Of a DNA stretch of 30,915 nucleotides, positions 6,449 through 6,660 are shown one piece after another; position 1 is the stretch's first letter, and each line of letters begins with the position of its first letter. Position numbers and translations under genes: made by a program. The DNA is from Escherichia coli. Lineage in GTDB: Bacteria; Pseudomonadota; Gammaproteobacteria; Enterobacterales; Enterobacteriaceae. The notes beneath the pieces are model-generated. The model was not told the origin of the DNA and did not search any database. It saw only the letters and a program-made list of their open reading frames with translations. Location of the stretch: the NCBI RefSeq assembly GCF_003334335.1, contig NZ_QOWQ01000048.1; one strand, given 5' to 3'.

Positions 6449-6660
6449 ATTAACTATTTGCCGGATGCGGCGTAAACGCCTTATCCGGCCTACGGTTCGA
6501 TGCGATTTGTAGGTCGGATAAGATGCGCAAGCATCGCATCCGACAATAAGTGCCGGATGCTGCGAAAATGCCTTATCTGGCCTACAGATTCGATGCGATT
6601 CGTAGGTCGGATAAGATGCGCAAGCATCGCATCCGACAATAAGTGCCGAATGCGACCTAC
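6449..6660. repeat. BIME: two tandem ~100-bp units built from REP palindromes
   Basis: Near-identical units at about 6451..6549 and 6550..6641 (tgccggatgc...gcctta tc(c/t)ggcctac...gtaggtcggataagatgcgcaagcatcgcatccgacaataag), lying between the convergent genes ybhC and ybhJ. Confidence 0.8.

Follow-up and report, generated by a model that had tools for sequence, protein, structure and literature searches.

The ybhC-ybhJ spacer and its REP array

The genes ybhC and ybhJ lie in convergent orientation in the window, i.e., the whole stretch of 30,915 nucleotides of Escherichia coli DNA analyzed in this study. According to the RefSeq annotation of the 100% identical E. coli K-12 records, the two genes are separated by a spacer of 233 bp, and the 901 tested bases of the window were likewise 100% identical to K-12. 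The spacer harbors an array of REP elements that is wholly extragenic, lying between the stop codons of the two genes (Table 1). RefSeq records of K-12 list the coding sequences alone at this locus, with no repeat annotation found, and a literature search on ybhC/ybhJ in combination with REP or BIME returned no paper about this spacer. Two open reading frames that cross the array, at 6490-6666 on the minus strand (58 amino acids) and at 6500-6907 on the plus strand (135 amino acids), were rejected as protein-coding on the grounds of their REP sequence and overlap with ybhJ; they are almost certainly spurious, and gene finders could miscall them.

Table 1. Features of the ybhC-ybhJ region, with positions in the window
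Feature	Position	Strand	Description
ybhC coding sequence	5160-6443	+	Stop codon TAA at 6441-6443; 3' UTR enters the array; from ORF, RefSeq annotation, and translation
Spacer	6444-6459		16 nt from ybhC stop codon to first REP stem
Y1	6460-6493	-	y-type REP, GTAG on minus strand; imperfect hairpin intact, -19.5 kcal/mol
Tail-to-tail linker 1	6494-6508		15 nt, GGTTCGATGCGATTT
Z1	6509-6544	+	z2-type REP, 36 nt, GTAG on plus strand; -18.5 kcal/mol
Head-to-head linker 1	6545-6551		7 nt, AATAAGT
Y2	6552-6585	-	Decayed y-type REP, 4 substitutions relative to Y1; hairpin only -7.3 kcal/mol
Tail-to-tail linker 2	6586-6601		16 nt, AGATTCGATGCGATTC
Z2	6602-6637	+	z2-type REP, same sequence as Z1
Head-to-head linker 2	6638-6644		7 nt, AATAAGT
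Partial REP	6645-6661		17 nt; y-like head GCCGAATGCG plus tail ACCTACA, mid-hairpin absent
REP core GTAGGNCNGATAAG	6480-6493, 6509-6522, 6572-6585, 6602-6615	-, +, -, +	Four copies
Terminator-like hairpin	6643-6678	+	In ybhC transcript; -11.6 kcal/mol, z -3.2
ybhJ coding sequence	6677-8938	-	Stop codon complementary to 6677-6679; transcript reaches the array from the right

Tandem Repeats Finder identified the array as the sole long tandem repeat across the 30.9-kb window (6459-6654, period 93, 2.1 copies, 91% matches, score 334). Together with an alignment of the units, this confirmed that a REP-containing unit is tandemly duplicated in the convergent spacer, as had been proposed in a first-pass annotation of the sequence. 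The proposed REP content also held, while the unit size of ~100 bp had to be corrected to 92/93 bp and the proposed span of 6449 to 6660 to 6460-6661 for the REP material itself. In a global alignment, unit 1 (6459-6550, 92 nt) and unit 2 (6551-6643, 93 nt) were identical in 86 of 93 columns and differed by six substitutions and one indel, in agreement with the earlier description of near-identical units with few differences. All seven differences fall within columns 1 to 51, comprising the y REP and the linker, and no difference occurs in the remaining 42 columns (Fisher p = 0.015). A separate repeat search returned two families in register, one of 65 nt at 97% and one of 35 nt at 89% identity. 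All copies of the REP core found in the window are located inside the array on alternating strands, with 0.06 copies expected by chance, and the partial REP ends 15 nt before the ybhJ stop codon. A sequencing or assembly artifact was rejected as the source of the repeat, as the structure is common to thousands of independent complete genomes.

Y1, Z1, and Z2 fold into stems of 7 plus 4/5 bp with a 2x2 internal loop and folding energies of -18.5 to -19.5 kcal/mol. The full length of the Rfam model RF02564 (naRNA4) aligned to the minus strand of 6512-6582 with 60.7 bits, just above the gathering score of 59.5, and the other four matches remained below the threshold at 28 to 42 bits. The alignment marks the first hairpin as y type and the second as z2 type with compensated changes in the z2 foot. 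Compared to the model, Y1 aligns perfectly to the Y half, the foot of Z1 contains a compensated T-A pair relative to the consensus, and Y2 shows six non-canonical pairs. RF02564 essentially represents a single Y-linker-Z2 unit from the REP325 cluster; the match mirrors the common y/z2 architecture and is no evidence of a small-RNA gene. The array thus resembles REP325/naRNA4 in its repeated Y-linker-Z2 unit, one copy of which lies just above the gathering threshold, and differs from it in having two units instead of six, a head-to-head linker that is 6 nt shorter, and a degenerate Y hairpin. A further Rfam match was obtained at the end of the window, where two tRNA-Lys(UUU) genes are located (30633-30708 and 30841-30915, minus strand; the second is cut by the window end): RtT (RF00391) matched 30742-30909 on the minus strand with 60 bits against a gathering score of 45, lying between the tRNA genes and overlapping the second.

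The elements have the properties of REPs, i.e., a GTAG 5' of the hairpin foot, an imperfect palindrome of 30-40 nt with a stem mismatch, an extragenic location, and dispersal across the genome; the 901-nt query had matches at a median of 25 places in each genome, most of them to REPs outside this locus. REP/BIME clusters of E. coli K-12 have been catalogued for decades. BIME-2 elements are defined as y and z2 REPs in multiple tandem copies of strain-variable number with short linkers, and copy-number polymorphism of such arrays is a published property (PMC3333891). The array combines y and z2 REPs in inverse orientation, short linkers, 2.1 tandem copies, an intergenic position at gene ends, and a unit number that varies between strains. 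Both its identity as a BIME-2-type REP cluster of alternating y and z2 elements and its copy-number dynamics can hardly be doubted. The label refers to the y/z2 tandem architecture, S/s/l/r linker motifs aside, and the array may formally be an "atypical BIME." It departs from typical BIME-2 elements in the y-like foot of its z2 REP (GTCGGAT...ATCCGAC, with one compensated pair), in its locus-specific tail-to-tail linker of 15 to 16 nt, and in the decay of one y REP.

Other classes fit less well. BIME-1 elements are single-copy (PMC3333891), and although the array shares an inverted, intergenic REP pair with BIME-1/RIP elements, these consist of y and z1 with a long L linker containing an IHF site, whereas the second REP here has z2 length (36 nt) and aligns over the whole z2 hairpin, and the unit has a short linker and occurs in tandem. 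RRS elements are 222-bp repeats located ~650 kb from dif (PMC10592627), a location that does not fit this locus, and this assignment was rejected. With bacterial VNTRs or minisatellites, the array shares whole-unit gain and loss, reciprocal deletion products, and homogenization within the array, but its units are structured REP hairpins of a family dispersed genome-wide and not an anonymous repeat. A relation to the REPtron/TnpA-REP (RAYT) system is indicated by the 5' GTAG and the internal stem mismatch of its REPs, both of which TnpA-REP needs for binding and cleavage (PMC3333891); on the other hand, the transposase gene is absent from the window, and the alleles found are all in register, which homologous recombination or slippage explains equally well. 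The array is therefore already known in kind, and its novelty is limited to the allele census, the evidence for an old, homogenized duplication, and the replacement of terminators described below.

Unit number across strains

The comparison of unit number between strains suggested in the first-pass annotation was carried out on 5,426 complete E. coli genomes. A REP-bearing spacer, defined by a single place that covers 80% or more of the 901-nt query, was found in 4,822 genomes, and 527 genomes carried a REP-free spacer of 73 nt. About 77 genomes had neither type at a coverage of at least 80%; in these, the locus may carry an IS insertion or have suffered a deletion. A 61-mer specific for the decayed Y2 was present in 2,781 genomes, indicating at least two units, with a small share of alleles consisting of unit 2 only included in this count. 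By subtraction from the REP-bearing genomes, about 2,040 carry one unit, and the number with two units is estimated at about 2,700 to 2,780. Three units in the order U1-U2-U2 were detected in four genomes by searching with a synthetic 261-nt query at an E-value cutoff of 1e-100, the extra unit being an exact copy of U2 in each case. Among plasmids, the Y2-specific 61-mer occurred in one record, and 93 places matched parts of the 901-nt query.

Two of the one-unit alleles were examined individually. In E. coli EC0026B, unit 1 alone remains; its loop is that of K-12, and the flanks are 99.8 to 100% identical to K-12. OkiPb01695 retains unit 2 only, also with K-12-like flanks (99.2 to 100% for the two strains together). 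These are the reciprocal products expected from unequal exchange. The occurrence of zero-, one-, two-, and three-unit alleles together with both reciprocal one-unit products shows that the array does serve as a recombination substrate, a capacity that the first-pass annotation had named for REP/BIME arrays in general. E. coli BHUCD02 showed the arrangement U2-U2, with an exact copy of unit 2 in place of unit 1 in an otherwise K-12-like locus, which is due to either gene conversion or an assembly-polishing artifact.

Furthermore, one genome per species was scanned beyond E. coli, in which E. fergusonii was not recovered. E. albertii NBRC 107761 contains five units and a partial copy, extending the range in Escherichia to 0 to 5 units. 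All five of its y REPs are stable (-12.6 to -20.0 kcal/mol), unlike the decayed Y2 of K-12, and several of its z2 REPs are variant (GTAGATTGG, GTGGATCGG). One unit was found in E. whittamii and in two divergent species representatives labeled "E. coli," and a lone y REP in Escherichia sp. MOD1-EC7003. In the divergent one-unit alleles of E. coli 81009 and 401656, the z2 REP starts with GTCG and has lost the conserved GTAG, an exchange that, judging from the TnpA-REP requirements reported in PMC3333891, should abolish recognition; in strain 401656, the partial REP head has also lost 1 nt. At least the first y REP is retained at the same position in all seven REP-bearing Escherichia lineages sampled.

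Age and probable homogenization of the duplication

A 57-mer covering the linker and the z2 REP matched a median of two places per E. coli genome, corresponding to this locus only, and the extra places in some genomes were matches to the REP core alone. Because this sequence is specific to the locus, the second unit was copied locally. The age of this event can be judged from Escherichia sp. E1V33, which also has a two-unit array and is 92.2% identical to K-12 in ybhC and 95.9% in the 3' end of ybhJ. Its Y2 has three of the four substitutions of K-12 Y2. Y segments group by position: the Y2 segments of K-12 and E1V33 differ at one of 35 positions, and each differs from Y1 of its own genome at four. 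The z2 segments group by genome, with no differences within K-12 or within E1V33 and two between them, and their loops differ between lineages (GCAA, GTCA, and GCCA).

The simplest reading of these patterns is that the duplication is old rather than recent and that the linker/z2 half was later subject to gene conversion. Homogenization of this half is indicated since the z2 halves are identical within a genome yet differ between genomes. The similarity of the E1V33 Y2 could also stem from an old horizontal exchange of the spacer instead of vertical descent, considering that E1V33 is closer to K-12 on the ybhJ side than on the ybhC side.

We weighed two other origins of the second unit. One is an independent insertion of the second y/z2 pair by TnpA-REP-mediated BIME transposition from another place. 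In vitro, TnpA-REP is able to cut single-stranded BIMEs, to recombine them, and to join multiple REPs together (PMC3333891), and Y2 is noticeably unlike Y1; nevertheless, the locus-specific linker and z2 sequence is identical in both units, the units keep an exact 92/93-bp register, and the partial third REP repeats the head-to-head junction, which makes such an insertion very improbable. The other is a recent tandem duplication in the K-12 lineage, as put forward in the first-pass annotation on account of the likeness of the units. The 42 identical columns at the unit end agree with it, and truly recent events do exist at the locus, namely, the exact extra copies of U2 in four genomes. However, the Y2 of K-12 is decayed, is present in 2,781 of the 5,426 E. 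coli genomes, and is largely shared with E1V33, the flanks of which have diverged by 4 to 8%, and the clustering of differences in the first 51 columns is not predicted by uniform drift after duplication. We consider a recent origin the least credible of all explanations examined, and this claim had to be dropped.

In the favored reading, a 93-bp y-linker-z2 unit specific to this locus would have been duplicated in place and in register to give the second unit. This would have happened long ago, preceding the divergence of the K-12 lineage from Escherichia sp. E1V33 or an exchange between the two. The array would then have behaved like a minisatellite, gaining and losing whole units by unequal recombination or slippage, with gene conversion keeping the linker/z2 halves alike while the second y REP decayed. 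TnpA-REP, the REP-associated Y1 transposase with REPs as its substrates, may have contributed to the changes in unit number. The in-register products fit RecA-type recombination, slippage, and TnpA-REP action alike and cannot distinguish between the three.

Terminator replacement and possible roles of the array

The REP-free allele, represented by E. coli 23CRST013 and WP2-W18, has a 73-nt spacer that corresponds to window positions 6444-6676 and contains two face-to-face intrinsic terminators. The ybhC terminator consists of GGGCGCTAT...ATAGCGCC followed by T7 and the ybhJ terminator of AACCCGAT...ATCGGGTT followed by TTCTTTTT. REPs are present at this site in every other Escherichia species recovered, and the REP-free allele may be either an ancestral polymorphism or an import. 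In Salmonella enterica subsp. diarizonae, ybhJ also lies downstream, and the spacer is REP-free with a plain 14-bp hairpin terminator.

A simple scan of positions 6300-6800 of the K-12 sequence for promoters and terminators found neither a promoter-like site nor a terminator. Folding revealed a terminator-like hairpin at the right edge of the array, in which the head of the partial REP, GTGCCGAATG (6643-6652), forms a stem with CATTC (6660-6664) and GGCGC (6669-6673) just ahead of a T5 run (6674-6678); it was missed by the simple scan because of a 4-nt bulge. This bulged hairpin with its U5 tract exists on the plus strand only. Judging by eye, the 3' half of this hairpin seems to be the counterpart of the ybhC terminator in the REP-free allele. 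The ybhJ terminator of that allele has no counterpart in K-12, and the ybhJ transcript therefore runs straight into the array. Compared to shuffled sequence, the folds of the whole spacer RNA yielded z values of -10.7 for the plus strand and -7.0 for the minus strand.

REPs and BIMEs are established elsewhere as barriers to exonucleases and attenuators of read-through. The first-pass annotation's mention of terminators or mRNA stabilizers is likewise a general statement found in the literature, and such a role is plausible for this array. By analogy, the array, which would form the transcribed 3' UTR of each of the two convergent mRNAs, could act through its REP hairpins against 3'-to-5' exonucleases and attenuate read-through. 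Sitting where REP-free alleles have two opposed intrinsic terminators, it would supply stable 3'-end hairpins for both mRNAs, as the only 3'-end structure in the case of ybhJ and as an addition to a remodeled hairpin and U5 tract in the case of ybhC. We regard the chances that the array provides the 3'-end hairpins of the ybhC and ybhJ mRNAs as about even. Healthy natural strains carry anywhere from 0 to 5 units, and Y2 has decayed; both points argue against much function depending on the number of units and suggest that the contribution of the second unit is small and near neutral. For the overall account, i.e., a BIME-2-type array with an old local duplication, later minisatellite behavior, and a role in forming 3'-end hairpins, we estimate a probability of roughly 80%.

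Of the competing views on function, the one that survives best is that the array is purely selfish or neutral with no function for the host, transcripts being ended by Rho or other hairpin-independent means. The variation in unit number across Escherichia and the decayed Y2 would be expected in this case, as would the B2-type strains with GTCG in place of GTAG in the z2 REP. Against it, the REP-bearing alleles have lost the intrinsic terminator of ybhJ, so that some element must set the 3' end of its transcript, the first y REP has stayed in place in every REP-bearing lineage sampled (7/7), and the right-edge hairpin with its U tract is retained in most of the seven. On balance, a complete lack of function is possible but unlikely.

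Alternatively, the array could be maintained mainly at the DNA level, acting independently of transcription as a strong gyrase site or as a topological barrier that separates the convergent units. Convergent gene pairs such as ybhC/ybhJ are sites of positive supercoil build-up. BIME-2 elements are enriched in gyrase cleavage sites, with a preference for y REPs (PMC6379681), and BIME-2 sites lie mostly at the borders of supercoiling regions (PMC10592627). By analogy, the array may bind gyrase. Cleavage was, however, seen in a subset of BIME-2 elements only, and the ybhC/ybhJ locus is not named in the supplementary tables of PMC6379681 as far as these were accessible. Moreover, one of the two y REPs has decayed, and 527 genomes do without the array. 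We therefore consider a mainly topological function rather unlikely.

A down-regulation of ybhC translation by the first REP, through stalling of terminating ribosomes, seems quite improbable. In 2015, Liang, Rudd, and Deutscher reportedly described ribosome stalling by REPs near a stop codon, with a limit of roughly 15 nt. The 16-nt distance between the ybhC stop codon and the Y1 stem is close to this limit but just beyond it.

A nucleoid-associated small RNA of the naRNA4 type, condensing DNA together with HU, is highly improbable as the product of the unit: its RF02564 match and the report that almost 80% of REP elements are transcribed (PMC4550694) stand against the generic nature of the model, the defective Y hairpin and shorter linker of the matching unit, the lack of a promoter-like site in 6300-6800, and the finding, in the same paper, that any hairpin RNA, antisense included, worked in vitro.

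A more far-reaching reading takes the asymmetry within the array as exceeding chance: the linker/z2 halves are homogenized per genome, and the decayed Y2 remains distinct and nearly unchanged across lineages that have diverged by 4 to 8%. It would combine segment-specific concerted evolution with the replacement of terminators as a case of REP domestication, and we consider it improbable. If true, it might mean a directional conversion, e.g., by TnpA-REP acting only on REPs with intact hairpins, or, alternatively, selection for one disabled y hairpin that limits cruciforms or gyrase cleavage in the 3' UTR. The domestication would then lie in the way the array took the place of one of two opposed terminators and remade the other out of a REP head.

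Taken by itself, the array is of little importance beyond annotation. For the REP family, it illustrates that near-identity of tandem units is no evidence of recency. The locus also offers a clean natural allelic series of 0, 1, 2, 3, and 5 units that includes the two reciprocal deletion products as well as a REP-free allele ending in classical terminators, and this series could be used to test the effect of an extra BIME unit on mRNA 3' ends, convergent read-through, and local supercoiling.
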